Source of the DNA: Patescibacteria group bacterium
GTDB lineage: Bacteria > Patescibacteriota > Microgenomatia > 2-02-FULL-39-11
Direction: 5' to 3'
Assembly (NCBI GenBank): GCA_023379265.1
Contig: JAMCUI010000007.1
Coordinates: 14,780 to 78,779, forward strand
DNA length: 64,000 nt
In this document: positions 3,486 to 61,140 of the stretch, in pieces
Layout: each line of letters opens with the position of its first letter
Numbering within the stretch: position 1 is the stretch's first letter
Notes under the pieces: generated by a model
The model's database searches: none
What the model was told of the DNA's origin: nothing
Seen by the model: the letters and a program-made list of their open reading frames with translations, nothing else
Program-made: the position numbers and the translations under genes

Positions 3486-4355
3486 ATGAATTCAGATAAA
3501 AACACTGATTTGTCTTCTGCTCGTGAACAATTTATCAGATATCTCACAGAAAACAGAAGGGCTCATGCTACTATTTTAGCATACAGCAAAGATATAGAGC
3601 AGCTGGTCGCCTTTCTTTCTGACATGGGCAAAAAGCAGATTATTGAAGTAGAAAAAATAGATCTTGATGGCTTTCTGAAAAAACTTTCCACAGATGGTTA
3701 TACTCTTAAATCCCTCTCCCGAAAAATAAACTCCATAAAAACATTCTATCGGTTTCTTAAAAACCAAAATCTTATTACAACCAATCCAGCAGCAGAGATT
3801 ACCCACCCAAAATATGAGACTAAACCCCCCAGAATACTATCAAAGATGGAATATAGAGCTTTAAGGGACGCTTGCAGATCAGATATAAGAACTTATGCCA
3901 TCGTGGAGCTCTTCCTTCAGACGGGCATAAGAATTGGAGAATTGGCTAATTTAAAACTGATAGATGCCAATGAAAGAGAATTAATAATTAGACCTCAAGA
4001 GAGTCATCCGCAACGCTCAATACCTTTGAATAAGGCAGCCAAAGCTGCACTGGATAAATGGCTAATTATAAGACCAAAAACCAATGGCGAAGCTCTTTTT
4101 GTCACCAAAACCGGCAGGCCGCTTTTAGTTCGTAATATTAGGACTACTATAGATAGATATTTTAAGATTGCCGGTATTGAAAACGCCAAAGTAAATGATC
4201 TCAGACATACTTTTATTGCACACCATCTAGCTGCAGGAACAGATCTTACCATGATCAGCCAGTTAGTAGGACACAAAAGACTGGCTACTACAGAAAAATA
4301 CCTAGACCTCATAAAGGACAAGGCCGTCTCCAACCTGAAACTGGAAGAGCTTTAA
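3486..4355 (+). CDS. tyrosine site-specific recombinase, XerC/XerD family
   Basis: 289 aa. N-terminal core-binding SAM-like domain. C-terminal catalytic signature LRHTFIAHHLAAGTDLTMISQLVGHKRLATTEKYLDL, i.e. the R...HxxR...Y tail. Confidence 0.8.
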   Translation: MNSDKNTDLSSAREQFIRYLTENRRAHATILAYSKDIEQLVAFLSDMGKKQIIEVEKIDLDGFLKKLSTDGYTLKSLSRKINSIKTFYRFLKNQNLITTNPAAEITHPKYETKPPRILSKMEYRALRDACRSDIRTYAIVELFLQTGIRIGELANLKLIDANERELIIRPQESHPQRSIPLNKAAKAALDKWLIIRPKTNGEALFVTKTGRPLLVRNIRTTIDRYFKIAGIENAKVNDLRHTFIAHHLAAGTDLTMISQLVGHKRLATTEKYLDLIKDKAVSNLKLEEL

Positions 4356-4568
4356 CTTGAACTGTTGAGCATTAACGTCTCTTCTTACCTTACTCTCCTT
4401 CCTTTTCCGATATTATTAATTTCATCACTTGTGAGTCCAGATAAGTTGATTTTATTGTGAAACGTGAGGGATAAAAGCACTGTTTTTTCTGTTGAAGTAT
4501 TTAGAACCGAAACTCTTAAGTTTTCCAGCAGTGCAAACAATGAACAAGTTTTTTAATTGGATTTTATG

Positions 4569-4640
4569 TGGAACCGGATGGAGTCGAACCATCTACATCG
4601 ACTTTATAAGAGTCGCGTTCTGCCGGTGAACTACGGTTCC
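4569..4640 (-). tRNA. tRNA-Ile (anticodon TAT/UAU)
   Basis: Reverse complement folds as acceptor GGAACCG/CGGTTCC, D-arm GTTC-ACCGGCA-GAAC, anticodon stem CGACT/AGTCG with loop CTTATAA (TAT), T-arm GATGG-TTCGACT-CCATC, discriminator A. No CCA. Confidence 0.8.
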
Positions 4641-4756
4641 ATGCAACCTGTCCCATAAATTTGCCTCGATTACAAATTATTCAGACAGTCGAAAATTAAA
4701 GGAACAAAGCGCTAACGTGTCTGAAATTATAGAATATACGGGGAGAAATGTAAATT

Positions 4757-7102
4757 TTATAGTTTAGCGCGCTGGGATATTTCTGCTTCTACTAATTCCC
4801 TAGGCCTTCCATACTTCAACCGTGAAAGAGAAAGTATCGCCTCTGCCACCTTGGGGTTTTCAATCTTCTTTTGCGCTGCCATATCTTTTCTCAAATCAAC
4901 AGAAAATGGTGGAACCGGTTTATTCCCTACTATGGTATTTACATAGGCATTATAAACGTCAACGTTAATAAGATCTCCTTCATTAAATACCGGAGTAAAC
5001 CAGTGTTGTAAATAATTAGCATCAGTTACGCCTACTCTAAATGTAATAAGTGTCCCAACGTTACCAAAGACGGCATTTTTTACCTCCTCCTCCATTTGTC
5101 CTATAAACTGGTTAGCCACACAAAGGTTTAGCCTGAATTTCCTGGCCTCAGAGAGTATTTGGGCAAAATCAGGTGTTGCAAAATTCTGAAATTCATCAAC
5201 ATAAAGAAAAAAGTCTTTTCTTTTATCTTCAGGAGTATCCACCCGACTCATGGCGGCTACCAGAATTTTTGGCACCAGGATTAAACCAAGGAAACTGGAA
5301 TTTTCTTCTCCCAGTTTTCCCTTGGCAAGATTGACAAGAAGAATCTTCCCTTCATCCATCACTTTTCTAAAATCAAACGCACTTTTACTTTGTCCGATTA
5401 TGTTTCTCATAAGTTTATTAGTGACAAAACGGCCGAATTTTGAAACAATATAATCCAATACTTCAGATTTATGAAAATCTGAAGTCTGCGCAATCTGGTC
5501 AGTCCAATAACGTCTTACAATCGGATCCTGAACTTTTGGAAGAAGCTCCTGAACATATGAAGAATCAGTCAGAACTCTAACAACCTCTACAAAAGAAGCA
5601 CCTGGCTCCACCATAACAGTCAACATTGCATTTCTTATGGCGTGCTCAAATCGTGGGCCAATAATACCTGTTTTCTGCGGATCATAAAGTTTGTACATTA
5701 ACCCTATGATTGAAGTGACTATAAAATGTTTCTGTTCCTCGGTATAGGCTTCAAGCATATTAAGTCCCATTGGTCTTTCTCCATCTGAAGGATCAAAATA
5801 GATGATATCCTCAGCTCTTTCTGGAGGAATAAGAGGTAAAAGTCCCTCAACTAAATCTCCGTGAGGATCAATAACTGCAACTCCTTTCCCTTCCTTTATA
5901 TCCTGCAAAACCATATCTTTCAGAAGTACAGATTTACCAACCCCTGTTTTCCCAATTATATAAACATGCCGCCTTCTGTCATCAAGTTGCATGTAAACAG
6001 GACGCATAATTCCACGGTAGACACTTTTACCTAAATACATTCCCGATGTTGGAGTTTCGGCAGGAGCTGGGGCTTTTTTGGATGTTACCCAGTTGATATG
6101 AGGCGTTTCAATAGTTTTATTGGGAAAATGGAATATTGTAGCCAACTCTTCACTGGAAAGGATAGAAAGTTGCCTATGTGGCCAGTTCACCATAGGAAAA
6201 TACCGATATATAAAATCCACCATAAATGAACTCTTCATTAGGTGCTTGGCACGGGTGAAGTGATTTAAGTCGGAAGCAAACTGTGCAAAGACCGCCTCAA
6301 TATTATGAAGATGCATGTTGGCTGACTCAAGCGTTGTCGAGGTTACTACTACCCTTATAACAGTCTTAAAACCAGGTTTTGAGGTCTTATTTTCAACCGC
6401 TTCAAGTACTTTAGGATCAACATTATACTTTGCTTTTTCAGGATTGGCTTCATTTTTCTTGATGCTGGAAACGTAACTTCTACCCTTTTTCTTCCACTTA
6501 CCATCAGCGGGAGTTATCAATATTTGTATAGAAGCACCTTCCCCAGTCTGCATTTTTCCTAGTGCAGAAGTAACTGCTGAAAGAGGATCGACAGGCAAGT
6601 CCTTATAAAAACGCATCGGGTAAAAATCCGCATGCTGTAGTATATAGGAGGCAAAAGCTACCTTTCCGTCTTCATTAAAAATATTATACTCATCCACCTC
6701 CTTAATTTCTGCCTCTGGATACATTCCGTAGATCTGCTTTTCTAACAGATCGCGCAAATGGTGATGAACAGATATATAAAACTTTATGTCTCCAGGGGTA
6801 CCGACTATCTCAAACGAAATATGATCTGAAGCTTTCAGGAATGACAAAAATCCTCCGTGAGAGAGTGAAGCGAGAGAGGAAAAAAACTGTTCAGCCGCAT
6901 CAATTTTTATTTCATTATTTTTGGGAACCATTACCTGCAATAACACAAACTCGAGACTTTTTTTCTCGCGTCCCCGGTGTTTCCACCAAAGAAAAAGAAA
7001 ATATGAAAGAAGCGACAATCCTACTAAAAGAATTACCAACGCTCCCATAACCAAAGCTAAGTCTTCAAGCCTAAAAACAATTTGTGAAGGATCAGTGTAC
7101 AT
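4757..7102 (-). CDS. membrane-anchored P-loop ATPase, VirD4/TraG/TraD-type type IV coupling protein-like (FtsK-HerA superfamily)
   Basis: 781 aa. N-terminal TM. Walker A GKTGVGKS followed by VIDPHGD (the DPKGE-like T4CP motif). IIYFDPSD...GLNML (NPL-like). Walker B YVDEFQNF. ARKFRLNLCVANQFIGQM resembles the T4CP RKxG...Q motif. The ~340-aa N-terminal domain before the P-loop is unusually long. Confidence 0.5.
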   Translation of the reverse strand: MYTDPSQIVFRLEDLALVMGALVILLVGLSLLSYFLFLWWKHRGREKKSLEFVLLQVMVPKNNEIKIDAAEQFFSSLASLSHGGFLSFLKASDHISFEIVGTPGDIKFYISVHHHLRDLLEKQIYGMYPEAEIKEVDEYNIFNEDGKVAFASYILQHADFYPMRFYKDLPVDPLSAVTSALGKMQTGEGASIQILITPADGKWKKKGRSYVSSIKKNEANPEKAKYNVDPKVLEAVENKTSKPGFKTVIRVVVTSTTLESANMHLHNIEAVFAQFASDLNHFTRAKHLMKSSFMVDFIYRYFPMVNWPHRQLSILSSEELATIFHFPNKTIETPHINWVTSKKAPAPAETPTSGMYLGKSVYRGIMRPVYMQLDDRRRHVYIIGKTGVGKSVLLKDMVLQDIKEGKGVAVIDPHGDLVEGLLPLIPPERAEDIIYFDPSDGERPMGLNMLEAYTEEQKHFIVTSIIGLMYKLYDPQKTGIIGPRFEHAIRNAMLTVMVEPGASFVEVVRVLTDSSYVQELLPKVQDPIVRRYWTDQIAQTSDFHKSEVLDYIVSKFGRFVTNKLMRNIIGQSKSAFDFRKVMDEGKILLVNLAKGKLGEENSSFLGLILVPKILVAAMSRVDTPEDKRKDFFLYVDEFQNFATPDFAQILSEARKFRLNLCVANQFIGQMEEEVKNAVFGNVGTLITFRVGVTDANYLQHWFTPVFNEGDLINVDVYNAYVNTIVGNKPVPPFSVDLRKDMAAQKKIENPKVAEAILSLSRLKYGRPRELVEAEISQRAKL

Positions 7103-7145
7103 GGAAACTTAAAGCTATATTTACTAGATAAATCATTCTATCTTT

Positions 7146-7628
7146 CTAATCAGATTTTACTCTGATTATTTTTCCGTGTATGACTTTGAGCATTACATGA
7201 GCCTTTTTTAGTTTTTTGACACACCATACGGCCATCCATCGCAAAGCACTGCTTATTTGACTATGAAGTCCCGCTACAACCTGCTGATCCGAGATGGGCA
7301 AAACTACATTTGGTAAGGGGGTAACTGAAGCAACTAAGGGAATCGAAGCCCCAGATTGAGTTACTCCCAACTTTTTGACATCAGGAGGTAATTCAATTGA
7401 CTCTTTTATTGCTGTCACCCCCACCTCTGATACTTCTTTTGGTATCTCAACCTCTTTGGAAATCATCTGAGGTGTCTCGGAAGATGCAATTTTTATCGCC
7501 TCATGTTCTTTCCCTATCGATACAGATACTGTCTGATTCTTTACTCCCTTGTCTGACTTTATCCCAGAATTGCTTTTTACGCTTTGAGAATAATTCTTCT
7601 GTTGGGAGTTGGCAGGTGTGGTGTTCAT
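7146..7628 (-). CDS. hypothetical protein (Ser/Lys-rich, C-terminal amphipathic/hydrophobic tail)
   Basis: 160-aa ORF packed between the S-component-like gene and the ATPase. No motifs recognised. Confidence 0.35.
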   Translation of the reverse strand: MNTTPANSQQKNYSQSVKSNSGIKSDKGVKNQTVSVSIGKEHEAIKIASSETPQMISKEVEIPKEVSEVGVTAIKESIELPPDVKKLGVTQSGASIPLVASVTPLPNVVLPISDQQVVAGLHSQISSALRWMAVWCVKKLKKAHVMLKVIHGKIIRVKSD

Positions 7629-7663: not shown

Positions 7664-8296
7664 TCAGTTTTCCCTTGCTTTGTGATTCAATTTTATTCCA
7701 GAAAAATTAAGTGAAGACAGAAAAGTTTTTATGGTTTCAGCTGTAAAGAAAGAGATAGGAACTAAAACTACATTGCCTATGAGGTTGTATTTGAAAAAAG
7801 GCAAACCTAAAATATAAGCATCAACTAATCCGGATAATGTTCTTGGATACATACCCCAATTATCCAAAAACCATACGCCGAAATTCGTCCAAAGATAAAA
7901 CCAAAAAGACGCAGCAATACCCACACCTCCTGCCGTTAAAAGCTTAAAAACTAAATTTCTTTCTCCGGCAGCTTTACTTTTGAAATTTAGTTTCAAAATT
8001 CCCATCAAACCAATCACAATATAACCGCTCCATGTGAACATAAATATATTTGTATTTCCAATCAACACATCCGTAACCGCCATAATAAAAAAAGGTACAA
8101 CCAAAGCGTATTTTTTGCCCAAGTATGCAGCTGAAAGAAGAGTTGCTGAGGTAACAAATTCCACATTATCTCCGATATGAAAAACCGTTCTAGAGAGAAT
8201 ACCTAAAATTACTAGGATAAAAGCGAGTAAATATTTTTCTTTATCTTTTCTTCCCATTTTCCTCAAATTAAAATTTAGAATAAATCCATTCGACAT
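7664..8296 (-). CDS. small polytopic membrane protein, ECF-transporter S-component-like (candidate cobalamin/corrinoid substrate-binding component)
   Basis: 210 aa with ~6 predicted TM helices and a short basic C-terminus. Size and topology resemble ECF S components. It overlaps the DUF4430 gene and lies in an operon headed by a cobalamin-riboswitch-like leader. Confidence 0.35.
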   Translation of the reverse strand: MSNGFILNFNLRKMGRKDKEKYLLAFILVILGILSRTVFHIGDNVEFVTSATLLSAAYLGKKYALVVPFFIMAVTDVLIGNTNIFMFTWSGYIVIGLMGILKLNFKSKAAGERNLVFKLLTAGGVGIAASFWFYLWTNFGVWFLDNWGMYPRTLSGLVDAYILGLPFFKYNLIGNVVLVPISFFTAETIKTFLSSLNFSGIKLNHKAREN

Positions 8297-8741
8297 GGTC
8301 TCCTGGATATATCACATATCTATCAGCAGCAATAGTACCCGTTTTCCCATTTACCTTATATATCCAGCCGTATTGTCCACCATTTGCCCTATCGCCAATC
8401 TTGGTCACCATTATTCCGTATTTATACTGTTTTATCTCTATATCTATTTTCTTGTCAGTAGCCAATTTTTTAAGCGCCTGATATACTGTCTGTACGTATA
8501 CCTCGCCTGTTTCATTTTTTCCATTACCAAAATCAATTGACACTATTTCCAAAGATGTTACACTCTGCGTGGGTGACGGCTGCTGTTGATTGCTTAGCTC
8601 TGTGGTTTGAATATTACGGTTTACGATATTTGGTAAATTAATAACCGATTGCTGTTTTTGCAACACATATTGCCCAAAGACAACCAAAATTACTACGATT
8701 AAACCGGTAAATATAAACAATTTTTTTGAATTTCTTTTCAT
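8268..8741 (-). CDS. DUF4430-family (transcobalamin/intrinsic-factor beta-domain-like) secreted protein
   Basis: 157 aa. N-terminal signal anchor. The C-terminal motif GWIYKVNG...YVIYPGDHVEWIYS matches the W-x-Y-x-V-N-G ... D-G-D-x-V-x-W-x-Y signature of DUF4430 proteins, which are found next to ECF/cobalamin transporters. Confidence 0.5.
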   Translation of the reverse strand: MKRNSKKLFIFTGLIVVILVVFGQYVLQKQQSVINLPNIVNRNIQTTELSNQQQPSPTQSVTSLEIVSIDFGNGKNETGEVYVQTVYQALKKLATDKKIDIEIKQYKYGIMVTKIGDRANGGQYGWIYKVNGKTGTIAADRYVIYPGDHVEWIYSKF

Positions 8742-8796: not shown

Positions 8797-11283
8797 TTAA
8801 TTTATTGCTGTTTCTGAAGTAGCAGTGTCGCTAAAACTGTAAATTACTCCAGATAGGAGTATATTTGTTCTAAATCTCTTGTCATTCACTTTTATATTTT
8901 TTGTGTTTGCATTTTTGCCTTGAAATTTTCCTGAAAATAACAGTTTTTCTATTGATTTTACCTGCTGATCTTTGCCTTTTTTATACCATCTCCGGCTATT
9001 TTGACATTGTATTATATGCTGCTTAAGTTTGATAAATAAAACAAGACAATAAATTATAAAAAGAATCTCCCAATATGCTTCCTTATACTTATCCATTTCA
9101 AGATTTGACACCCGGTCTTGCAGTAATAATAACGGTAATAACCCATCTTTTAAGTTTAGGTATTGCTCCTCAAATAAGCTGTCATAACTTTTAAGAAATT
9201 CTATTTTCTCCTGTAACTGGTCTAGATTTTCTTGTGTAAATCTGTCGGAATAATCAGATATAAGCCGTTTCAGCTGAATATAGATAATTGTTGAAACAAG
9301 AAATTTAATCTGTTCGGGCATTTTATCCACTCTAAACACCTCCGTAAGTACTGACAATGAGGTAACAATATCTGAAATATTTTTGAGAATGGAAGGGATC
9401 TCTGGCTTTAAGAATGTCTGATCTCTAGAATCTTTGAGTAAATCTATTATTTCCTCAGTTAGAAATATCAAATCCATATATATTTCTCTTCTACCATTAC
9501 GAGTCAAACTATCCCGTTTTCCTGGATACGTAGCATTATTTTCCCCACATGTAAGAAAAGATTCCAATCTAAAATCATCAAAATATCTGAAAATATGTAC
9601 AAATCTTTCTGTAAAATCTGCATCCCACATCGGTTGAAAAATAAAACCATCCTTTTGAAAAGATGTGCTTTGTGAAATATCAAATCTATATTTATGCGCA
9701 ATAAGGCTATGTAATTTCATAAAGTCTTGCTGCACTTCTTTAGTATTTTGTGATAAACTAAATTCTCCAAATTGTCTACCTAACTTATTGCTATGTTCAG
9801 CGCTAAATTCTTTCTCTTCACTTAACTCTAAAGGTTTATTAGGACTCATCTCGATAATTTGTTTTTCGCTTCGTTTATAGCTCCCGGTCGTGCTTGAAAG
9901 TAGGGTTTTGAGATGACTTCTAGACTGATCTGGATTATGAGAAATCAGAAGAAACTGTTCAAAATTCAGTAATTGTTCTTCTAGTAAATCAATCTCAGCC
10001 AAAGTGTCTTTGACATAATTCCACGGCAATATTTCCTTTCGTTCATTGCTCTTTTCTTCACCATCTAAGATTTCTTTTTCTTCTTTCCCCTCCACGCTCT
10101 TTAACCATTCTTTTTTATCTAAAACATCTACTGGAAACACTTTGGGCAAAACAGTAGCTCCTACTGTATCATCAATCAAACTCCTCATAAAAGCATAAGC
10201 AGCCAACACACGCATCCGGTCTAGAGTATCAATCTCTCTAACCTCCTTGGCAAATTCGGTTTGAGATTTATCAAAATCACTTTTATTATCAGCATAAAAA
10301 TCTATCTCTTTGAAGTTTTCTTCTTTTTTCCTTTCTCTACCGTTTATCCTTTGAGTGGACATTCCATCAGACTCTAGTCTTTTGATACCATTTGTTCCGT
10401 TACCTCTACCTTCTCTAACAAAATCTTCTTCCACCTGTAAAACCAAAGCTTGAGCCATCATCGCAAAAGCTGTCTTTATATTCTTGTCTTTCTCTGCCAT
10501 CTTTTCCATTTCCCCTGCATAAAATTGCTCCTTTGCCTTATTTTCTGACTCTCTTTGGAAATCAGAGATTAATGTTTCCTGCTTAAACTTATCTAAAACG
10601 CTTTTCTCGCTTTCCCTCTTTTCTGCTGAAAACGATTGGGAAAATGATTCAAATATTTCCGTATGGTCAATATTTTTCCCCCGGGATTCAACTAAAACCG
10701 TTTCTTCTTCAATCGTATCGTGACGATCATGTTTTTCTCCAGTTACTCTATCCAAAAAATTCCATAGCGTGTCGCTATCCCCACCTACAGTATATGAAGT
10801 CAATTTGACGGTATCACCTTTTTTCTCTGCCTTATAAATCCTGTTATTTCTTCCGTGAGTATCCTTCGTCTCTTTCCTACTACTCACCCACACTGCAGTT
10901 ATATCAGACTCATCAGAAGCTATCTTATGATATTTATCAATAAGCTGACGATAGGTCTGCCCCCCATTCTCCTTATCATCAATCCATACCTCTGCCGCTT
11001 CTCCTTCCTGTGAGAGCAAAGTGTCCACGAATTCCTCCTGTCCGGAAATTTTATTTCTCACTTTTACATTTTTGCCTATCCTCAATGTAACTTGATTTAT
11101 GACGCTTCCATCGGTACTAAATTCATCCTGATATGTCCTCATATCCCGCGCCATGGCTGATACTGCTTTTTTACCCTCACCCAACCGCTCCATCACGCTA
11201 AAGGCTCTGGCGCTTGATAAATCATGATCTCCAGCTGAACCATTTGTTCCGATTCCCATCGGTGCAATCGCTTCAACCATCAT
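8797..11283 (-). CDS. large uncharacterised protein (828 aa), acidic/charged, single TM near C-terminus; first gene downstream of cobalamin-riboswitch-like leader
   Basis: Long ORF with no signal peptide and one hydrophobic segment (WEILFIIYCLVLFIKL) about 90 aa from the C-terminus. No catalytic motif recognised. Confidence 0.45.
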   Translation of the reverse strand: MMVEAIAPMGIGTNGSAGDHDLSSARAFSVMERLGEGKKAVSAMARDMRTYQDEFSTDGSVINQVTLRIGKNVKVRNKISGQEEFVDTLLSQEGEAAEVWIDDKENGGQTYRQLIDKYHKIASDESDITAVWVSSRKETKDTHGRNNRIYKAEKKGDTVKLTSYTVGGDSDTLWNFLDRVTGEKHDRHDTIEEETVLVESRGKNIDHTEIFESFSQSFSAEKRESEKSVLDKFKQETLISDFQRESENKAKEQFYAGEMEKMAEKDKNIKTAFAMMAQALVLQVEEDFVREGRGNGTNGIKRLESDGMSTQRINGRERKKEENFKEIDFYADNKSDFDKSQTEFAKEVREIDTLDRMRVLAAYAFMRSLIDDTVGATVLPKVFPVDVLDKKEWLKSVEGKEEKEILDGEEKSNERKEILPWNYVKDTLAEIDLLEEQLLNFEQFLLISHNPDQSRSHLKTLLSSTTGSYKRSEKQIIEMSPNKPLELSEEKEFSAEHSNKLGRQFGEFSLSQNTKEVQQDFMKLHSLIAHKYRFDISQSTSFQKDGFIFQPMWDADFTERFVHIFRYFDDFRLESFLTCGENNATYPGKRDSLTRNGRREIYMDLIFLTEEIIDLLKDSRDQTFLKPEIPSILKNISDIVTSLSVLTEVFRVDKMPEQIKFLVSTIIYIQLKRLISDYSDRFTQENLDQLQEKIEFLKSYDSLFEEQYLNLKDGLLPLLLLQDRVSNLEMDKYKEAYWEILFIIYCLVLFIKLKQHIIQCQNSRRWYKKGKDQQVKSIEKLLFSGKFQGKNANTKNIKVNDKRFRTNILLSGVIYSFSDTATSETAIN

Positions 11284-11319: not shown

Positions 11320-11345
11320 TAAAAAACCCTCTATCTCAAGAGGGT
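11320..11345 (-). terminator. intrinsic terminator (riboswitch expression platform)
   Basis: On the minus strand: ACCCUCU-UGAGAUAG-AGGGU hairpin followed by UUUUUUAUU. It lies between the aptamer and the start codon at 11283. Confidence 0.5.
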
Positions 11346-11454
11346 CAAAATGATCAACGAATTCTCAAGTTACCCAATTTCAAACAAGCAAATTATGTGT
11401 ACTTATTGATTGATTGGATAATTGTATTGTTTGTTGATTTATTACTTTCCTGCT

Positions 11455-11575
11455 CGGGATAAACTTGAAGGGGAGTTCCCGGCTTATATCGCAGAAGGCG
11501 AAATTCACGGTTGCGGCACAGTCCCTGATTTTCACAGGGTTCCTCTTTTCCTTCAATAGAGTTGTTAATTTACTT
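11455..11575 (-). ncRNA. cobalamin (B12) riboswitch, short-type aptamer
   Basis: The minus-strand RNA reads GGAACCCUGUGAAAAUCAGGGACUGUGCCGCAACCGUGAA...AAGCCGGGAACUCCCC. This matches the cobalamin riboswitch core GGAA-nnn-GGUG-AAA-UCC...GC-C-CCGCAAC-UGUAA and a B12-box-like AAGCC-GGGA...CCCC. It is followed by a terminator and then a gene. Confidence 0.55.
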
Positions 11576-12154
11576 CGTACTCAACCAGACATTTTCTTTT
11601 ACTTTTGCCATCTTATTAAGATATCTGGCTGTCTCAAAAAAAAGATCCGACAATCTATTTAAGTACACCAAGACTAATCTGTCAACATTGCTTTCTGTAT
11701 TATAAAGTCGCACTACTTCCCTCTCAGCTCTACGGCAGACAGATCGAGCAAGATGGGAAAACGATGCGGCTTTTGTGCCTCCCGGCAATATAAAATTTTT
11801 CAAAGGCTCAAGCTTTTCATCTATACTATCAATTAGCACTTCCATCTCACTATCACGCCCCTTTATGTTAACCAAATCGGATTTTCCAAGCGCCAGATGC
11901 GAACCAATTGAGAGTAAATCAGACTGTATTTTATGGAAAAAATCGGAAAGTTTCTTCTCTTTTTCCAAATGGGAAATAAGAACTCCAACTACAGAATTGA
12001 GCTCGTCAACTGTACCAAAAGCAACAACCCGCAAATTATGCTTCTCGACCCTTGTACCACCGTATAAAGAGGTTTTCCCATCATCACCAGTACGTGTGTA
12101 TATCTTTACTCTATTACCGGTTTTAATACTTCGTTTGGAATTTTTGCTTTTCAC
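11570..12154 (-). CDS. pduO: ATP:cob(I)alamin adenosyltransferase, PduO type
   Basis: 194 aa. N-terminal IYTRTGDDGKTSLYGGTRVEKHNLRVVAFGTVDELNSVVGV matches the PduO/MMAB signature (IYTRTGDxGxTSL...R...YG..DEL). Confidence 0.8.
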   Translation of the reverse strand: MKSKNSKRSIKTGNRVKIYTRTGDDGKTSLYGGTRVEKHNLRVVAFGTVDELNSVVGVLISHLEKEKKLSDFFHKIQSDLLSIGSHLALGKSDLVNIKGRDSEMEVLIDSIDEKLEPLKNFILPGGTKAASFSHLARSVCRRAEREVVRLYNTESNVDRLVLVYLNRLSDLFFETARYLNKMAKVKENVWLSTK

Positions 12155-12184
12155 GGAACCGCCTGTTCTTGTGTATAAAGTGAC

Positions 12185-14515
12185 TTAACATTCACTATAC
12201 CCGCAGCTGTAACACTTTTTACAACCTTCCTCAAAAGCCAACGATGCTTCTCCACATGAAGGACATAAATCATAGTCTGACTTTTCGGCGAGTAACGGCT
12301 GCTGCGTCAGGACTGATATTGTCGTCATACCATTTTGTATCTGATTATGCGCTACGCCATTTCCGTTTTTTATCTTGTAACCAAAATGCATTGCTAGCAC
12401 TTTGGCAACAGCATCCGGTAGTGACCTTACTTTTTTATCACCAAACCCTAAAGATTTTGATCCGCCAATACCGATAAGCTGATTGAATATCTGTTTGGCT
12501 CTTTCACTAGATGGAACGTTGGACTGCATCCTCAGCGCCAATGAAGCCAACCTACCCATAGCTTCTGCCATGGCAGTGACGTCAGATCCGGCCTTTCCGA
12601 CATTAATAAAGATTTCCAACGGTTCATTACTTTCACCGGTATTTATGGTGACAAAGGCCGCTCCAACTGGTGTATCGATCTGATATGTAGCTCCGTTTAC
12701 CATCATCGGTCTTGATTTTATCTGAGCTTTTGCCTCTCCATTGTGTTTTTCTTCCTTCTTCTCTTCAGTTTTTTCCGTAACTCTCTCCAACACTCCCGGC
12801 CTGCTACCATCTCTCATATACGTCATCCCTTTACAACCCAGATCATAAGCCAGACGATAAAGTTTTTGGACGTCTGCTACGGTATGCGTTTTGGGAGCGT
12901 TTACAGTCTTAGAGATAGAAGCATCCACATATTTCTGGATGGCAGCCTGCACCTTTACATGATCCTCAGGAGACAAATCATTGGCTGAGACAAAATATGA
13001 GGGAACAGGATCATTGGGATTCTTCTTTTTCCATTCTTCAAACAGCGGATGATAAAGCCTATGCTCTCCCAACCTGTCACGTCTGATGAACGAAAACTCA
13101 TAAACAGGCTCTATTCCTGAGGATACTCCAGCCAGAAGCGATGTGGAACCTGTTGGTGCTTGCTGTAGAAGAACTGAATTCCTTATGCCCCATTTTTTTA
13201 TTCCGTCCCTAATTTTCTTGGGCAATTGCTTGATAAAATAGCCTTTAAGATGTTTCTTTGTATCAAGTTTGGGAAATGATCCTTTTTCTTTGGCTATTTC
13301 AATTGAAGACTCGTAAGCAGCATCCCTTATTATCCTGTAAATTTTATCTATTATTTTGAGTGACTCGTCAGATCCATATCTAATCTTCATTTTTATCAGG
13401 GCATCTCCCAACCCCATCGTGCCCAAGCCGATACGTCTTTCACCGTTTTGCTGCACTTCCCTTATCTGGGGAAATACGTAAGCATCAGCATCAATTATGT
13501 CATCCTGAAACCTGACGCCAACTTTGGCGATTTCTGCCATTTGCTTGAGATCTATCCTTCCTTCCTCATCAACCAGTGAAGCCAGATTTATTGAGCAAAG
13601 ATTGCAGACTCCCCAGGCGGGTAGACCTTCTTCACCACAAGGATTTACGCAGTTTATCTTATTGAAATACCAATTATTAAACCATTTATTATATCTCTCC
13701 ATAAATACCACACCCGGCTCTGCTGAAGCCCAAGCAGCCTCGGCTATCATATCCCAGATTTTTCTAGCCTTTACTGTCTTCACCACTCTCACTTTTTTCC
13801 CAAGTTTTAACCAATTATCTAGATAACCATCCCATTTGGTATCATATTCCTTATCATTTATATCGGGGAACACCAGATCCCAATCACCATCTTTTTTTAC
13901 CGCATCCATAAATTTATCAGAAACACAAACCGAAAGATTGGCGCCGTTTATTCTGGATAAATCTCTTTTGACGGTAATGAATTCCTCGATATCTGGATGC
14001 CAATCCCACAACATAAGCATGAGGGCTCCACGCCTTGTTCCTCCCTGCTGGATGATATCTTTTGTTGCTACCGAAAAAAGTTCAGCCCAATTGCATGGAC
14101 CCGAAGAAAATCCATTTACCTTCTTCACACGGGAACCACGCGGCCGCAGAGATGAAAGGTTTATACCCACCCCTCCTCCTCTAGCCATAATCTCAACCAT
14201 TTGCTTTAGTGTTTCCAGTATTCCATCACGTGAATCTTTTGGGGAAGGAATAACAAAACAGTTGTAATAAGTTACTTTATATCCTGTTCCTGCTCCTGAT
14301 AGTATCCTTCCTCCAGGAACAAGTTTGAAATTTTCCATAGCATCGTAAAACTTCTTCTCCCAAGATTTTCTTTCTTCAGGCTTTTCCATCTCTGCCACAC
14401 CTCTGGCCACTCTTTTCCATAATTCTTCCGGTGTTTTTTCCTGGGGATTACCTTTATCGTCTTTTAAGGAGTAACGATCTAAAAAGACCTGTTCGCGGAT
14501 GCCTGTTAATTTCAT
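12185..14515 (-). CDS. nrdJ: ribonucleoside-diphosphate/triphosphate reductase, adenosylcobalamin-dependent (class II)
   Basis: 776 aa. Class II active-site region NPCGEEGLPAWGVCNLCSINL, a glycyl-radical-free architecture, and a C-terminal Cys-rich zinc ribbon CPSCG...CKKCYSCGYSEC. Confidence 0.9.
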   Translation of the reverse strand: MKLTGIREQVFLDRYSLKDDKGNPQEKTPEELWKRVARGVAEMEKPEERKSWEKKFYDAMENFKLVPGGRILSGAGTGYKVTYYNCFVIPSPKDSRDGILETLKQMVEIMARGGGVGINLSSLRPRGSRVKKVNGFSSGPCNWAELFSVATKDIIQQGGTRRGALMLMLWDWHPDIEEFITVKRDLSRINGANLSVCVSDKFMDAVKKDGDWDLVFPDINDKEYDTKWDGYLDNWLKLGKKVRVVKTVKARKIWDMIAEAAWASAEPGVVFMERYNKWFNNWYFNKINCVNPCGEEGLPAWGVCNLCSINLASLVDEEGRIDLKQMAEIAKVGVRFQDDIIDADAYVFPQIREVQQNGERRIGLGTMGLGDALIKMKIRYGSDESLKIIDKIYRIIRDAAYESSIEIAKEKGSFPKLDTKKHLKGYFIKQLPKKIRDGIKKWGIRNSVLLQQAPTGSTSLLAGVSSGIEPVYEFSFIRRDRLGEHRLYHPLFEEWKKKNPNDPVPSYFVSANDLSPEDHVKVQAAIQKYVDASISKTVNAPKTHTVADVQKLYRLAYDLGCKGMTYMRDGSRPGVLERVTEKTEEKKEEKHNGEAKAQIKSRPMMVNGATYQIDTPVGAAFVTINTGESNEPLEIFINVGKAGSDVTAMAEAMGRLASLALRMQSNVPSSERAKQIFNQLIGIGGSKSLGFGDKKVRSLPDAVAKVLAMHFGYKIKNGNGVAHNQIQNGMTTISVLTQQPLLAEKSDYDLCPSCGEASLAFEEGCKKCYSCGYSEC

Positions 14516-14566
14516 ACTTTTAATATAAGCTAAATCTTAATAATGACTGACAAAACATGAGACTAT

Positions 14567-15013
14567 TTACAACAATTTATTCAACTCTCTCTCAAAATCT
14601 TCCAAATCTACAAATCTTCTGAAAACTGACGCAAACCTTATATATGCAATCTTGTCTACTTTCTTCAGTTTGTTTGCAACCAGCTGACCTATTTTTTTAC
14701 TGTCAACCTCTGTCGTATCCAAACCTCTCAGTTCTCTTTCTATCTCATCTGTAATCCGCTCTATATCTTCTATTCCAACAAGCGTCTTTTCGCAAGATTT
14801 TATAATCCCGTGTTTCAATTTATCTCTGTCAAACTGCTCTTTTCTCCCATCTTTTTTTATGACAATTATAGGAACACTTTCCACTCTTTCGTATGTGGTA
14901 AATCTTTTCGTACATTTACTACATTCCCTTCTCCTTCTGGTTGTACCCAGATCTTCACTATCTCTTGTTTCAACAACCTCTGTATCGCTATTACTACAAA
15001 ACGGGCATTTCAT
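14567..15013 (-). CDS. nrdR: transcriptional repressor NrdR
   Basis: 148 aa. N-terminal zinc ribbon MKCPFCSNSDTEVVETRDS...CSKC followed by an ATP-cone domain. Confidence 0.9.
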   Translation of the reverse strand: MKCPFCSNSDTEVVETRDSEDLGTTRRRRECSKCTKRFTTYERVESVPIIVIKKDGRKEQFDRDKLKHGIIKSCEKTLVGIEDIERITDEIERELRGLDTTEVDSKKIGQLVANKLKKVDKIAYIRFASVFRRFVDLEDFERELNKLL

Positions 15014-25405: not shown

Positions 25406-26038
25406 TTAACTTTTCGCTTCACTAACTATTTTTTTTAATTTTTCTGCAGCTAATTTCGGTTCATTTACCAGAAATACTGCAGATATTACGGCAATTCCAT
25501 CGGCTCTCGCCCGTATTACTTGATTTGCATTTTCCAAAGTTACTCCTCCTATTCCTACAATGGGAATTTTTACCACTTTTTTAATTTTTTTAAGCATGCC
25601 AATCCCGACAGGCTTACCTGTATCTGTTTTAGTTGTGGAGCCGAAAATGTCACTTACACCCAAATAGTCAGCCCCGTCTTTGACTGCTTTTTTTGCTTCT
25701 ACCACATTGCTCGCTGTAACCCCCAATATTTTTTCCCGTCCGATAATCTGTCGGACAATATTTGCTGGCATATCGCTTTGCCCCACATGTACTCCTTCAG
25801 CATCAATTGCCAATGCCACATCAATCCTGTCGTCAATGATAAGAGGAATACCCGCTTTCGTTGTAATTTTATGAAGAGCTCTACCTTCTTCAATCATCAG
25901 TCGTGTGGAAGCATTTTTTTCCCTATATTGCACAATTGTCACTCCACCTTCTATTGCTAATGCAACAATTGAAAGGACTGATTTTTTTCCGGCCAAATTC
26001 TTGTCAGTGACCAAATAAAGACTGTAGTCAATATTCAT
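25406..26038 (-). CDS. thiE: thiamine-phosphate synthase
   Basis: 210 aa. YLVTD...VQYREK...GADYLGV motifs of ThiE. Confidence 0.85.
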   Translation of the reverse strand: MNIDYSLYLVTDKNLAGKKSVLSIVALAIEGGVTIVQYREKNASTRLMIEEGRALHKITTKAGIPLIIDDRIDVALAIDAEGVHVGQSDMPANIVRQIIGREKILGVTASNVVEAKKAVKDGADYLGVSDIFGSTTKTDTGKPVGIGMLKKIKKVVKIPIVGIGGVTLENANQVIRARADGIAVISAVFLVNEPKLAAEKLKKIVSEAKS

Positions 26039-27353
26039 TGAAAATCACTCTCAGTTTCATAAAAAGTAAATATACAATAGACACGCAGACAAATGTCGGA
26101 AGGGATGCTCCCAGATCTGGCAGTTTTCTGGTAATAAACTGGTAGACTAAAATCCCAAAAACCCAAGATGACATTGCCAACCAATTAATTCCTTTTGAAA
26201 ACCAATACAGACCATGTCTGCTATAAAGCTCTTTTGTAGCTATATTTCCTTTATGTATAAAAAAATAGTCAGTAATAAGAATGGCAAAAAGAGGAATGAA
26301 TATTGACCCTATAAGATAAAGGAAATTCTCATACTGTGTAATATTCAGGAACATTGCGGAAATTAAAGAGAATATTCCCAAAAAAATAATAAGTGTCCGT
26401 TGCTTTATATGGGGAAAGATATTTTGTGTTGATACTGCTGAAGAGTATAAATCTGCCCAGGCTTCTTTTGTCTCGTCAACCAAAAGTATAAGAAGCGCCA
26501 GTGAACCGGCAGACAATAAAACCGCCTGAATGAATCCTATCGTCTCCTGGGTTATGGAAGTTGTCATAAGTATGACCGCGCCAACAGTATAAAGCCATAT
26601 ATTTGAGAGAAAATACCCCCAAAAAGACCCCCAAAAAGCATGCCTGTCGTTTTTTGCAAACCTATTAAAATCAGCAATCAAAGGCAACCAAGATATAGGC
26701 ATAGCAATCACTATATCCACCCCAGACCAGAAAGAGAGGCTACCATCTCCGGCTTTTCTCAAAAGTGTGGAAATATTGTTTCCGGCAAAAATATGATAAG
26801 TCAACCAAGCTGTAGTCAAAATCACAATCCACACGGCATACCTTTTGAGCCACTTTCTTACCACAGCCGTTACTCCCCCTATTCCCATTAGAATGACTAA
26901 AAAAGCAAATATAATGATACTTATGTAATAATTTCCAAATCCAAAGAGTGATTTTAGTATCGCCACTGCCGTCATGCCCATAACGACAAATTCAAAGATT
27001 GTCCAGCCAATAAGTTGTATCACATTAAAAAATGATGGTAACCATGATCCTCTTATGCCCAAAATCGATCTTAAAAGAACCATTGTTGGAGCATGAGTCC
27101 TGCTGCCCATAAGACCCACAGCTGCCAAAAGTATGCATCCGACAAAAGAACCTATGATAATTGCGGTAAATGCCTGAAAAAAACCAAGCCCCGGAGAAAG
27201 AAAACTGCCTGCCAAAAGAACAAGAAGACCCATACCCAAATCTCCCCACAGGACAAAATAATCAAAGAAACCAAGTATCTGATATTTTTGGGGTACAGGC
27301 TCAATCCCCCATTCCGGGAGGGACCTGACAATCTGAATTTTCTTTTTACTCAT
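26028..27353 (-). CDS. cytX: NCS1-family permease, candidate hydroxymethylpyrimidine transporter CytX
   Basis: 441 aa with about 12 TM helices. It is the first gene after the TPP riboswitch and is co-operonic with thiE/thiM/thiL/thiD, the classical CytX context. Confidence 0.55.
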   Translation of the reverse strand: MSKKKIQIVRSLPEWGIEPVPQKYQILGFFDYFVLWGDLGMGLLVLLAGSFLSPGLGFFQAFTAIIIGSFVGCILLAAVGLMGSRTHAPTMVLLRSILGIRGSWLPSFFNVIQLIGWTIFEFVVMGMTAVAILKSLFGFGNYYISIIIFAFLVILMGIGGVTAVVRKWLKRYAVWIVILTTAWLTYHIFAGNNISTLLRKAGDGSLSFWSGVDIVIAMPISWLPLIADFNRFAKNDRHAFWGSFWGYFLSNIWLYTVGAVILMTTSITQETIGFIQAVLLSAGSLALLILLVDETKEAWADLYSSAVSTQNIFPHIKQRTLIIFLGIFSLISAMFLNITQYENFLYLIGSIFIPLFAILITDYFFIHKGNIATKELYSRHGLYWFSKGINWLAMSSWVFGILVYQFITRKLPDLGASLPTFVCVSIVYLLFMKLRVIFNEY

Positions 27354-27380: not shown

Positions 27381-27405
27381 AAAAAAACCATTCCGCAAGG
27401 AATGG
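27381..27405 (-). terminator. intrinsic terminator (TPP riboswitch expression platform)
   Basis: On the minus strand: CCAUUCC-UUGC-GGAAUGG followed by UUUUUUUAU, immediately 5' of the cytX start. Confidence 0.6.
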
Positions 27406-27520
27406 CTGTATATTTTCCCTGCGTTGGCATTATCCAAATCAGGTTATATGGGTCATCCCGATATATTTCGAGAACTCTCAGCCTGATTTCCATCAAGCTC
27501 CCCATTTAATAATTAATATT
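27405..27520 (-). ncRNA. TPP (THI-box) riboswitch
   Basis: Minus-strand RNA contains GGGGAGC...GGCUGAGA...GAUGACCC...AACCUGAUUUGGAUAAUGCCAACGCAGGGA. This is a near-consensus THI element (CUGAGA; ACCUGAUCUGGAUAAUGCCAGCGUAGGGA). Confidence 0.85.
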
Positions 27521-46335: not shown

Positions 46336-49300
46336 TTGCTTGACTTTCATCTGAAGCTGCTTTACGCTGAAATTATGGTTCATCTAGGCGAAAATCTACC
46401 AACACCGGCCGACGCAATTATCCGAGCAAAAACGACTTACGATATGGTAAGAAAACGTCTTGGTGGAACTGTTAATACAACATTAACGCCAATTGAAATA
46501 ATCCGGAATTATAACGCAAATATTACACAAGGCCAACCAACATTTAATGAAAATCATCCTGAAAATATAGAAGCTGTCCGAAATGCACAACGGTATCAGC
46601 GTGATATAAACATGATGGGTTTACAGCCCGATGATGAATCCAGCGTAGTACAGCAAAAAATTAGAGATTTGGGAACGCTGGTAGGAAGCCTGGCGACAGA
46701 ACCTGAAAACATACTTTCGCACCTCAGACAATTTCAAGAACATGGAGCAAGACTTGGGCTGACCGGATCAACAATTGAGGAAATGGCTGCAAGTGTAGAT
46801 ACGATCTTGGCATCTGATGCTCCACTTGTCGGACTAGATTTAAATCATGATTCTCTTTTGGATATTGCTACATCTGTTTATGACACCCGCCATGATGCTG
46901 AACTTTCGGGTATGGGGAATGCCTTTACCGCACCAATGGATGAAGCGCTTCATGCTGTGGACGATTTCCGGCAACATGCTGATCGGTTGGGCATTGTAAA
47001 TGCAATAGGAAGGAATCAGCGGCCTATGAATGAACTTTTGGGAGACTTGGCAGACAGGGCACAAAGAGCAGGAGCGGGGGGCGGTACAACAGTAGCTGAA
47101 CAATTTGCTGCCGTTGATAGATTTGGAACGTTTAGAACACAAGCCACAAGAAATATCCGCATGGGGAATATTGACGCTCTCACCCGACACCAGATAGAAA
47201 ACAGGTTGAGAGATTATGCAGAAAACCTGGAACTAAGTAGAGATGGCAATGTGGACGAGGTTATCGGAAGAATTGAGAATTTTCTTACTACACAGATACA
47301 AACAGCAGGGTACGACATCACACAAAACATACCAGATTTGGTACGAACCATAAGAGCAGACCAGGATATCCTTTTCCGAGACAATCAACAACAGGGGGCA
47401 AGACGTCAACAACAACAACATCGGATACAAGAAATCGTCAACCGCGCAATTGGACTACGTAATATGGTTGACGCCGCTCTAATCACTGATCGGACTAATA
47501 CTATGCCTCTTAGGGAATTGGGCAGCCATGTCATAAACGACGCACAAATTGCAGGTGGTATTAATATTCAACAAAACCAACGGCCGCGCCTGGCATATGA
47601 AATTGCCCAAGATATTAGAAACCTCAGAAATAGCGTAAGGGCTGCACATTTTGGAAACCTTGCCAATCGTAGGATGGAGGAAATGGCACGGCAACTACGA
47701 ATACAAGGTCCTGCGCTCAGAGTAAAAGACTCAGCCAACCAACCGTTAGCAGTTATCGTCAGTGCTGCTGATAAAGTAATCAAGGAGGAAATTGGGGCGG
47801 GTGTTGAAAACGCAGATGATCTTGCTAATTCATTGCGCACGATACAAACCGACGTACAAAAATTCAGAGTAGCTGCCAAAAATGCTGGAATCGATGATGC
47901 TGATAATGCCCAGACTCCTACTGAATCGATTACCATGGAATTGCAAGCACGCGCAGGAGTCGCTCAACTGGAAAATATTGACAATTTATCTCCAACTGAG
48001 ATCGCTCAAAAACTTGTCGAGTTCAATAAGAAAATAAAGACTGCAAAAGTAGAAGTTGTTGCGGGGGATTTTAGCACAACAGTTGATAACATCTATAATA
48101 CTGCGGGGTTACTCCAAATCCCGGATCATCTAGACCAAACTCCTGAGGAACTTCTCGGACAGATCACTACAATTCTTCAAAATACCAGAACAGCCGGGTT
48201 TGCCGAAGTTCAGGCCGGGCATGTTGGAGACCTTATTGATGAGATGAGACATACAACCGGAGCATTGAGACTGACACAGGATGCACCACTTACTGACATC
48301 ATCACTTCTGCCACACAATATCGCACTGATGCGCAAACAATGGGATATGACAGAAATGCAGATATTCAGACGGTTGCCGATAATGTCAGAGGATTCAGAA
48401 CTCTAATAACGAAAAATAATATTGCCGGAGCAAGTCTTACAGAACAGGTTGCTACACTTGAAACACATCGTGCCACACTTGGTCTACCAGACCATACTGC
48501 TGCCTACCAAATACTAAATACAGTGGAAACTACCAGACAGGATGCCATAAGGATTCAAACAGGTTTTGACGCATACAATCAAAACGTCGGCGAATCACTC
48601 CGAGTAGTCAATGAGTTTCGTGACCACGCGCAAGCCTCAGGAGTCGCAGACGCAAGGGGAGAACATCAGGTTGATATAACCCATCTCATGACAAATATCA
48701 ACACAGATGCCAGAGCTGCAGGAATTGACGCGACAGATACTTGGCAAAATAAATTCGACGCAATTACGGCTTTACGCCATGATGCAGAAACCATAGCCGG
48801 AATCCAAAACGTAAATAACACATCAATGGACAATATCAAAAGACAGCTTCGCGGCATTGCAGAAGCAATAGGTTTTACCTTCAACGACAGCACATCAATC
48901 AGAAATTTTCTCACAGGTATTGACCGGTTCAACAATCTGGCAGCTGGGGCAGGTTACCAAAGAGCTCCCGGCACATCTTATACAGATATCGCTTCCCAAA
49001 TAAGACAGGACGCCCAACAATATTTTAATATTAATCAAAACGACAATGGGGTTTCCCTGGAGACTAGATTGGCACGGGTGAAGACTTTGCGTGATCATGC
49101 AGAAAAAGCTAAATATACCGGGGATGTCAGGGCAGATCAATTGTCAAGCGTGGTTGCCTTTATAAACACCGAGGCACAGGCAGCTGGACTTGATAATGCG
49201 TTAACTTTGGAAGTCAAGGCGGATACTTTGGTTAAATTAAGACAAAGAGCGATAGCAAGAGGGATAACCGATGCAAATACTGCACTTATGTCCACTTTAG

Positions 49301-60843: not shown

Positions 60844-61140
60844 AAATTATTTCGGAATGCAATTATAATTTTCAGTCATATGCTCCATAAATTGCCTACC
60901 ATTTACCATAGATTTCCTAGAGCAAAAATTCTAGAACACAGTTCTAGTTAAACATGGCTGATAAAATCTGTCAATACTAAATAAAATGGGTAAAAAAAAC
61001 TTTTCACGGAAAATTAATCTATTTAGGTCATAATATGACCTGGAAAGCCTTACTTGCAAGATAATTTTTCACATTTTACGCTAGAAACAGTTATTGTTTT
61101 GTAGTCCGTATAAGAATTGTACACTAACTGACAACGACTT

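Follow-up and report, generated by a model that had tools for sequence, protein, structure and literature searches.

A conserved membrane-anchored ATPase of the VirB4/VirD4 clade and its small partner gene beside the B12 genes of a Gottesmanbacteria genome

Introduction

The subject of this work is a gene for a 781-amino-acid, membrane-anchored ATPase on a 64,000-nucleotide stretch of contig JAMCUI010000007.1 (assembly GCA_023379265.1), hereafter called the window, from a member of the Patescibacteria or Candidate Phyla Radiation (CPR); as named for the homologues of the ATPase, the genome belongs to Candidatus Gottesmanbacteria. The ATPase is the last gene of a same-strand array behind a cobalamin (B12) riboswitch, which encodes in order a protein of 828 amino acids (here called X), a DUF4430 protein, a DUF6580 protein, a 160-amino-acid protein and the ATPase, with gaps of 55, -29, 35 and 43 nucleotides between them (table 1). 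An earlier note on this DNA had described the gene product as resembling the type IV coupling proteins (T4CPs) and had offered three readings of it: a motor belonging to the corrinoid system, the relic of a mobile element integrated next to tRNA-Ile, or a part of the secretion apparatus whose VirB4 lies at the right edge of the window. Here, we describe the protein, its relatives and its neighbourhood, and weigh these readings together with some others.

Patescibacteria depend on host cells. Their type IV secretion system (T4SS) is essential in the sole genetically tractable species, and the abundant and highly conserved orphan "T4CP" genes of the phylum have no assigned role. In one survey, 2,918 Patescibacteria genomes yielded 5,713 VirD4-type T4CP homologues, and no more than 148 of these were close to virB4 (Quinonero-Coronel et al. 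2025, PMC12102498). These orphan homologues are chromosomal, mostly far from virB4 and accompanied by no relaxase; the window gene, from the same phylum, is one of them, and its family has thus already been counted in the literature. The retrieved passages of that paper mention neither a VirB4-like N-terminal domain nor a small upstream gene, and the word "cobalamin" is absent from the text obtained; we found no literature on DUF8128, DUF6580 or cobalamin riboswitches in Patescibacteria. The window ATPase is essentially an ordinary member of a known, uncharacterized CPR family. Its VirB4-type N-terminal domain, its constant small-gene partner with a promoter element and its plasmid relatives sharpen the hypotheses that can be made on the function of the motor. 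For the window itself the practical outcome is mostly negative: the juxtaposition with the B12 genes is a lineage-specific synteny and does not amount to a new corrinoid machine.

Results

An intact gene of a large family

The open reading frame and its translation bear out the ATPase gene and its ATG start, and all of the motifs previously quoted for the protein are present: GKTGVGKS (Walker A, residues 384-391), IDPHGD, FDPSD...NML, YVDEFQNF (Walker B, residues 634-641) and RKFRLN...Q. The long N-terminal part, of about 340 residues before the P-loop, and the membrane anchor, a single long hydrophobic helix, were likewise correctly described. Both Walker motifs and the arginine and glutamine sensor positions are invariant across the family, so that the window protein should, to judge from its sequence, be active as an ATPase.

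That the gene is real follows from its more than 7,800 homologues (word-indexed search), of which the best 120 are 69-99% identical to it and about 781 amino acids long. A library clustered at 50% identity contains 23,433 representatives that match the family with E<=1e-3, of which 6,139 reach E<=1e-30. Identity across the lineage is 70-85%, and the GC content of the gene, 0.38-0.39, matches that of its flanks. The gene encodes an intact and strongly conserved core protein of the Patescibacteria. Some relatives (P0187, P0206, P0210 and others) carry an approximately 50%-identical ATPase domain at the C-terminus of proteins of 1400-1500 amino acids, a paralogous architecture; other members of the family have C-terminal extensions that bring their total length to 1000-2000 amino acids.

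Table 1. Coordinates of the features discussed (positions in the window)
Feature	Position	Strand	Basis
DUF8128-family ATPase gene, 781 amino acids, VirB4/VirD4 clade, membrane-anchored	4757..7102	minus	Open reading frame, ATG start
N-terminal transmembrane helix, residues ~15-40	6983..7060	minus	26 hydrophobic residues in a row, then KHRGREKK
DUF8128 domain, residues ~45-345, fold like the VirB4 N-terminal domain	6068..6970	minus	
RecA-like ATPase domain with helical insert, residues ~355-735	4898..6040	minus	
Walker A of the ATPase	5930-5953	minus	
Walker B of the ATPase	5180-5203	minus	
160-amino-acid partner gene, disordered N-terminus, basic amphipathic C-terminal helix	7146..7628	minus	
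DUF6580 gene	7664-8296	minus	Pfam
DUF4430 gene	8268-8741	minus	Pfam
Gene X, 828 amino acids, fast-evolving	8797..11283	minus	No Pfam match
Terminator hairpin after riboswitch	11325-11346	minus	Leader folding z = -3.84 against shuffled sequence
Cobalamin riboswitch aptamer	11453-11569	minus	RF00174 32.8 bits, gathering score 31.5; model R1 71.8 bits
PduO-type adenosyltransferase, class II (B12-dependent type) ribonucleotide reductase, NrdR	11570..15013	minus	Pfam
Promoter-like TTTACA-17-TATAAT between ATPase stop and tRNA	4726..4754	minus	11/12, consensus match only
tRNA-Ile(UAU), conserved downstream neighbour	4568..4640	minus	ARAGORN and Rfam
XerC/D-type tyrosine recombinase	3486..4355	plus	XerC/XerD/XerA models, 1e-45 to 1e-51
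PrgI/VirB3-like gene, chromosomal T4SS	61141-62634	plus	
TraC-like gene, chromosomal T4SS	62669-63349	plus	
VirB4 gene start	63346 onwards, right edge of window	plus	

Profile scores

The Pfam family PF26449 (DUF8128) is present in the precomputed annotation of a homologue that is 99% identical to the window ATPase (P0001) and of all 120 listed homologues, where it covers the N-terminal region and is accompanied by weak matches to DUF87, TrwB_AAD_bind, T4SS-DNA_transf and TraG-D_C. The window protein has, by way of this annotation of its homologues, the architecture of DUF8128 plus P-loop domain (PF26449 with PF01935/PF10412, about 780-860 amino acids). Our local Pfam scan of the protein gave no PF26449 match, the model being presumably absent from that copy of Pfam.

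Matches of the window protein itself are weak and centred on the P-loop, with best-scoring stretches of 49-83 residues; that of DUF87 has an E-value of 1.2e-7. When the curated thresholds of PF02534, PF10412, PF12696, TIGR03743/03754 and NF045973 are taken as the test for a T4CP, the protein is not recognized as one: TrwB_AAD_bind (PF10412) passes (E 7.3e-7; 28.8 bits against a gathering score of 20.5) on 49 P-loop residues only, TraG-D_C (PF12696) at 20.6 bits falls under its gathering score of 22, and T4SS-DNA_transf (PF02534) is absent from the matches. The best NCBIfam model is SXT_TraD (58.8 bits, cutoff 366), another TraD model reaches 38.9 bits (cutoff 648), and the CD1115 VirD4-like model gives a weak match over residues 371-691 (31.6 bits, cutoff 250). 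All VirB4 profiles score below cutoff (TIGR00929, 15.9 against 643; NF045975, 22.8 against 590; AAA_10, 15.9 against 27.5), and the VirB4_CagE match, over residues 379-702, is weak. The NCBIfam models for VirB4, HerA and CedB/D all score below SXT_TraD. The HerA equivalog reaches 16 bits against a cutoff of 970. The description "T4CP-like" stands at the level of the superfamily, where it fits the published counts of VirD4-type proteins in Patescibacteria, but has to be qualified for the protein as a whole: the profile matches lie mainly on the P-loop and the N-terminal domain resembles that of VirB4.

Structure and comparison with known motors

An AlphaFold2 model that draws on 29 diverse homologues reaches a mean pLDDT of 88 and shows a single helix, at residues 5-41, as the anchor. 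Structure comparison gave values of 29.8 for the C-terminal domain of VirB4 (4ag5), 28.4 for the C-domain of DptH, 27.6 for TrwB, 24.8 for HerA, 23.3 for DotL and 21.8 for Cag-beta. The genome's own VirB4 aligns with the C-terminal domain of the ATPase, including an ELATxFHFP linker (hhalign E 1.2e-4). Searched against PDB sequences, the family profile found TrwB (2e-7) and DotL (5e-6) and no VirB4 chain at E<=1; the N-terminal domain gave no signal with the genome's 226-amino-acid TraC-like protein. The fold architecture of VirB4, taken with the profile matches to TrwB and DotL, indicates that the protein combines the layout of VirB4 with a P-loop region closest to that of the coupling proteins. 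DUF8128 is a VirB4-type N-terminal domain, a finding that is new at a modest level.

With the coupling proteins TrwB, VirD4, TraD and DotL the window ATPase shares a nucleotide-binding domain that contains Walker A and B motifs and an inserted all-alpha domain. T4CPs, however, typically have two transmembrane helices and an anchor directly before this domain, whereas the window protein has one helix, followed by a domain of about 300 residues like the N-terminal domain of VirB4, and its gene has no adjacent relaxase or T4SS. The N-terminal and RecA-like C-terminal folds are shared with VirB4, TrwK and TraC, but the VirB4 profiles fail on it, there is no VirB3-like gene upstream and the genome has a separate, canonical VirB4. 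From HerA, FtsK and DptH (DndH) it differs by the lack of a HAS-barrel, of the FtsK gamma domain and of defence-system partner genes; neither the organization of HerA/FtsK proteins nor an equivalog-level score was found.

The small upstream gene

The neighbourhood of the gene was compared in about 100 loci, made up of 80 GTDB loci and the contigs of close homologues (cited below by number, L001 and so on). The gene immediately upstream in the window encodes, on the same strand as the earlier note had it, a protein of 160 amino acids and is separated from the ATPase by 43 base pairs (7103-7145). In other Gottesmanbacteria its orthologues, 36-46% identical, also lie directly upstream of the ATPase, whatever gene precedes them, and it belongs for this reason with the ATPase and not with the B12 genes. 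Over the CPR classes, 62 of the 81 loci have a same-strand gene, mostly of 100-190 codons, in this position, and most spacings lie between a slight overlap and about 20 nucleotides. The gene is fast-evolving, with sequence conservation inside classes. Homology between the small proteins of different classes was considered and rejected: comparison of clusters c5, c8, c11 and c78 gave hhalign probabilities below 1%, and position alone is conserved.

Of 57 loci, 26 have an extended -10 element (TGnTAnnnT) in the 40 nucleotides that precede the small gene, compared with a background of 3.8% (p ~3e-22), and only three have one upstream of the ATPase itself. A -10 match of at least 5/6 precedes the small gene in 43 of the 57, against a background of 17%. 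This enrichment argues that the small gene and the ATPase are an autonomous module, in most cases with a promoter of its own. The two genes form their own two-gene unit, and a small-gene partner with its own promoter element is a modestly new point.

Conserved downstream neighbours

The earlier note had correctly placed the ATPase upstream of a tRNA-Ile, here the tRNA with anticodon TAT (UAU in the RNA). This tRNA-Ile(UAU) is found 3' of the ATPase in 20 of 22 loci of the Gottesman-, Levy-, Woese-, Davies- and Dojkabacteria, and an orthologue of the window's Xer gene (cluster c1) holds the same position in 23 loci; in many Microgenomates a XerC/D-type recombinase and DivIC follow the ATPase. 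The neighbours differ by class: Xer and DivIC in Microgenomates and Dojkabacteria, DnaX in the Parcubacteria-like genomes and GyrB in Saccharibacteria. The adjacency of ATPase, tRNA-Ile(UAU) and Xer is an ancient synteny, and the Xer gene is a housekeeping gene rather than the phage integrase of a mobile element. The tRNA usually lies on the ATPase strand and is often followed by genes for Xer, DivIC and tRNA-Met.

Relatives on plasmids and phages

Full-length relatives that include the N-terminal domain, 21-31% identical, were found by tblastn on plasmids (437 records; Bacillus, Streptomyces, Staphylococcus, Clostridium, haloarchaea and Sulfolobus) and phages (58 records, mainly large Bacillus phages). 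On the Niallia plasmid NZ_CP137637 (L101) the relative, at 59899-62502, heads a Gram-positive conjugation cluster in which it is followed by a replication-relaxation protein, a conjugal transfer protein, TcpE, an 851-amino-acid ATP-binding (VirB4-like) protein, a further conjugal transfer protein and a lytic transglycosylase; it occupies there the position of the coupling protein. On a Halorussus plasmid (L102) the match is split over two adjacent genes, for a 376-amino-acid hypothetical protein and a TraM-recognition-domain protein, which adjoin a pilin gene and a second TraM-recognition-domain ATPase. This plasmid context supports an origin of the family in conjugation machinery and a coupling-type role. 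It also agrees with the published view that the T4SS of CPR bacteria derives from monoderm conjugation systems. IMG/VR gave just 11 matches to the ATPase, all weak. The Bacillus phages G (gp156), CampHawk and Goe2 are among those with full-length relatives.

The riboswitch, gene X and the B12 genes

All loci were searched with Rfam and with a covariance model (R1) built from nine aptamers. About 14 distinct loci proved to have a riboswitch, all of them in Microgenomates, and with these models none was found in any examined locus outside that group; the association is accordingly not conserved across the ATPase family. In 9/9 Gottesmanbacteria loci (the window, L001, L002, L004, L006, L007, L098, L099 and L100) the riboswitch shares the strand of the module and separates the adenosyltransferase gene from X. 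Among Levybacteria it is present in L008, L015 and L016, the last with two copies, one of which leads into DUF4430-DUF6580-adenosyltransferase and the other into X, small gene and ATPase. In two Woesebacteria loci (L023 and L027) it is on the opposite strand and drives a minus-strand X that diverges from the module, and neither model detected one in L013 or in L031, a complete Woesebacteria genome, where the adenosyltransferase gene directly adjoins the small gene. The block of NrdR, ribonucleotide reductase (RNR) and adenosyltransferase genes precedes the module only in some Microgenomates loci. The gene order specific to the Microgenomates reads NrdR, RNR, adenosyltransferase, then, where present, riboswitch, X and uptake genes, then small gene, ATPase, tRNA-Ile and Xer. 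The distribution of the riboswitch and the changing gene order tie the riboswitch to X and the uptake genes and make the ATPase module a neighbour that varies with lineage. The ATPase is next to the B12 genes by lineage-specific gene order, not by shared function, and very probably has no part in corrinoid metabolism. In two loci the class II RNR contains an intein with a LAGLIDADG endonuclease (L001, 1971-5402; L004, 2991-6500); the RNR of the window (776 amino acids) does not.

DUF4430 and DUF6580 are presumed to be a pair for corrinoid binding and uptake. Among Gottesmanbacteria, they separate X from the small gene in the clade of the window alone (the window, L001, L098 and L099) and are absent from this place in L002, L004, L006, L007 and L100. 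In Levybacteria the pair is found with the adenosyltransferase gene downstream of a riboswitch, DUF6580 following either a DUF4430-like gene or an unclassified gene for 260 amino acids (L008). Searches of the two proteins against PDB sequences gave nothing useful.

X is under the direct control of the riboswitch, which it follows as the first gene in 9/9 Gottesmanbacteria loci and in L016, and likewise as the minus-strand X of L023 and L027. It has no Pfam, PHROG or PADLOC match and only four homologues in 5.8 billion sequences. The X proteins share an S-P-(P/D)-G region and have, in Levy- and Woesebacteria, a Cys4 C-terminus; they appear to be an uncharacterized B12-regulated family, and X is the truly unexplained B12-regulated element of this locus. 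The family is hyper-variable, with lengths of 430-830 amino acids (L001, 6142-8535; L002, 7699-9546; L016, 5756-7204; on the minus strand, L023, 5539-6837 and L027, 5965-7407).

Transcription into the module

In the window and in the eight other Gottesmanbacteria loci the ATPase lies on the same strand as the aptamer and 3' of it, with no intervening terminator. Between the B12 genes and the module of the window, where the gaps are 35 and 43 nucleotides, no terminator is predicted, and neither junction exceeds shuffled sequence in its folding (z = +0.34 and -0.92). Upstream of position 7628 there is no extended -10 element, and hexamer pairs reach only 8/12: in one (TTATCC-18-AATAAT) the -10 ends 1 nucleotide before the ATG of the small gene, an unsuitable spacing, and the other (TCTTCA-16-TAAAAT) lies about 60 nucleotides upstream, inside the DUF6580 gene. 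A point against read-through into the module comes from the relatives in which X itself adjoins it, where the end of that gene is overlapped by a good -10: TGATAGAAT in L002, TGATATGAT in L006 and L007, and TATAAT in L100. With neither a terminator nor a good promoter between the B12 genes and the module of the window, B12-dependent read-through is plausible in this genome by the ordinary criteria for operons. The comparative data make a corrinoid role of the ATPase improbable even if such read-through is real.

Discussion

A motor for the chromosomal type IV secretion system

The reading we favour, to which we give a probability of roughly 0.6, is that the gene encodes an intact membrane-anchored motor, with a transmembrane helix, a VirB4-type N-terminal domain and a RecA-like ATPase of the VirB4/VirD4/HerA clade, expressed from its own two-gene unit and serving a T4SS. 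By analogy with its structural relatives the ATPase, working with its small partner, would assemble as a membrane-tethered ring and, driven by ATP hydrolysis, would deliver a polymer, either protein or DNA, to a channel in the membrane. It would then most probably be the coupling or energizing ATPase of a chromosomal, relaxase-less T4SS whose VirB3 and VirB4 genes lie 56 kb away, near oriC. The VirB4 noted at the right edge of the window is indeed there, as the L097 contig with the same genes shows (PrgI, TraC-like and a 652-amino-acid P-loop_TraG/DUF87/AAA_10 protein). On that contig (10001-17000, corresponding to the window from 62669 onwards) PrgI, TraC-like, VirB4 and a 500-amino-acid protein stand beside dnaN-dnaA, in agreement with the location of CPR T4SS clusters near the replication origin given in the survey (PMC12102498). 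Of the three readings first proposed for the ATPase, that of a partner of this distant VirB4 apparatus appears the most plausible.

Several observations weigh against it. Within 50 kb of the ATPase there is neither a T4SS gene, those for VirB3 and VirB4 being at 61-64 kb, nor a relaxase; an association with relaxase and channel genes is seen in the remote plasmid relatives and not at this locus. The curated T4CP and VirB4 models are all far under their cutoffs on the protein as a whole. The essential T4SS cluster of Southlakia has no recognizable coupling protein or relaxase (Wang et al., PMC10633639), and in S. epibionticum a distant t4cp homologue, which may or may not be a DUF8128 protein, is reported to be non-essential for epibiotic growth and may have been exapted (PMC12102498). 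The DnaX, GyrB, Xer and DivIC neighbours in other classes would fit a role in chromosome handling equally well. As for the autonomy of the module, in the window and in L001, L098 and L099 the small gene follows so closely on DUF6580 that a promoter would have little space; the best match there is the ill-spaced 8/12 pair, no terminator was found, and expression of the ATPase in this genome may, on this sequence, depend on B12.

Alternative explanations

The same neighbours are one reason to consider an FtsK-like, membrane-anchored DNA pump that would act, without a T4SS, in the segregation of chromosomes or the resolution of dimers. The protein's fold of the FtsK-HerA superfamily, its conservation at the level of a housekeeping gene and its place beside Xer and DivIC, DnaX or GyrB according to class, and beside NrdR-RNR here, would all suit such a pump, but these partners change from class to class, the nearest relatives in sequence and context are of the conjugation type and not FtsK, and the protein has no FtsK gamma domain. 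The canonical FtsK motif G[AST]TGSGKS, looked for in the window and about 100 loci, occurs in a single family member, which with about 15 kb sampled per genome is uninformative. TM7x has a separately annotated ftsK (PMC10768705), and we regard this explanation as unlikely. It is also doubtful that the protein is a second VirB4-type energizing ATPase which, together with the small protein, would power another membrane process, for instance pilus dynamics or protein export, and would not be a coupling protein docked on the T4SS. The transmembrane helix followed by VirB4-like N- and C-terminal domains does come nearer to a VirB3-VirB4 fusion than to a classical T4CP, virB4 is seldom close to the gene (PMC12102498), and large Bacillus phages have full-length relatives and no T4SS; in profile searches, however, the P-loop region is nearer to TrwB and DotL than to any VirB4, and the plasmid relative fills the coupling-protein slot by a relaxase-like gene, in a cluster that has a separate VirB4-like ATPase.

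That the motor itself belongs to the corrinoid system is the least likely of the three explanations that remain beside the T4SS reading, and a very unlikely one. It supposes that X, DUF4430, DUF6580, the small gene and the ATPase all share the riboswitch transcript, and that the motor aids the acquisition of B12, for example its uptake or extraction from the host. The closely spaced array, its junctions without a terminator or folding beyond that of shuffled sequence, and the same-strand riboswitch of every Gottesmanbacteria locus would allow this, as would the loci in which the riboswitch is followed only by X, the small gene and the ATPase (L002, L004, L006, L007 and L100) and the second riboswitch of the Levybacteria locus L016. 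Yet the module is found CPR-wide in the absence of B12 genes, riboswitches being confined to Microgenomates loci; Woesebacteria carry riboswitch and X on the opposite strand; in L013 and L031 the module is present with neither riboswitch nor X detected; and the -10 element is strongly enriched just upstream of the small gene, X-adjacent loci (L002, L006, L007 and L100) included. We know of no B12 transporter that uses a VirB4/VirD4 ATPase. In its narrower form, that in Gottesmanbacteria and some Levybacteria an adenosylcobalamin riboswitch gates one transcript from X (and the uptake genes, where present) into the small gene and the motor, the idea is about as improbable. Were it true, a B12-starved cell would switch on a secretion-type translocation ATPase, and this would be the first link of a motor of the type IV secretion family to cofactor acquisition from a host cell. 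Hardly any credence can be given to the suggestion that a conjugative element, with the neighbouring tyrosine recombinase for an integrase, once inserted at tRNA-Ile and left the ATPase behind as a decaying remnant. The gene does adjoin a tRNA and a gene of the Phage_integrase family, but its reading frame is intact with invariant catalytic residues, it is 70-85% identical across the lineage, its GC content is that of its flanks, the recombinase is of the XerC/D type, and the order ATPase, tRNA-Ile(UAU), Xer, DivIC is kept in 20 of 22 loci from five lineages; this synteny, intactness and composition, with the few viral-contig matches in IMG/VR, rule the relic out.

Other features of the window

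Three open reading frames of 1624, 717 and 648 amino acids (46336-51210, plus; 51608-53761, minus; 53835-55781, plus) have no Pfam match and lie in a stretch with a GC content of 0.42-0.45, against about 0.38 elsewhere. A ClpB homologue of 1443 amino acids (56512-60843, minus) has about 350 residues between AAA_2 (668-818) and D2-small (1174-1254), and this extra stretch may be an intein or another insertion. A thiamine pyrophosphate riboswitch (27398-27514, minus; 65 bits) precedes a permease gene of the cytosine/purine/thiamine type (26028-27353, minus), and the two look like an ordinary thiamine-uptake unit.

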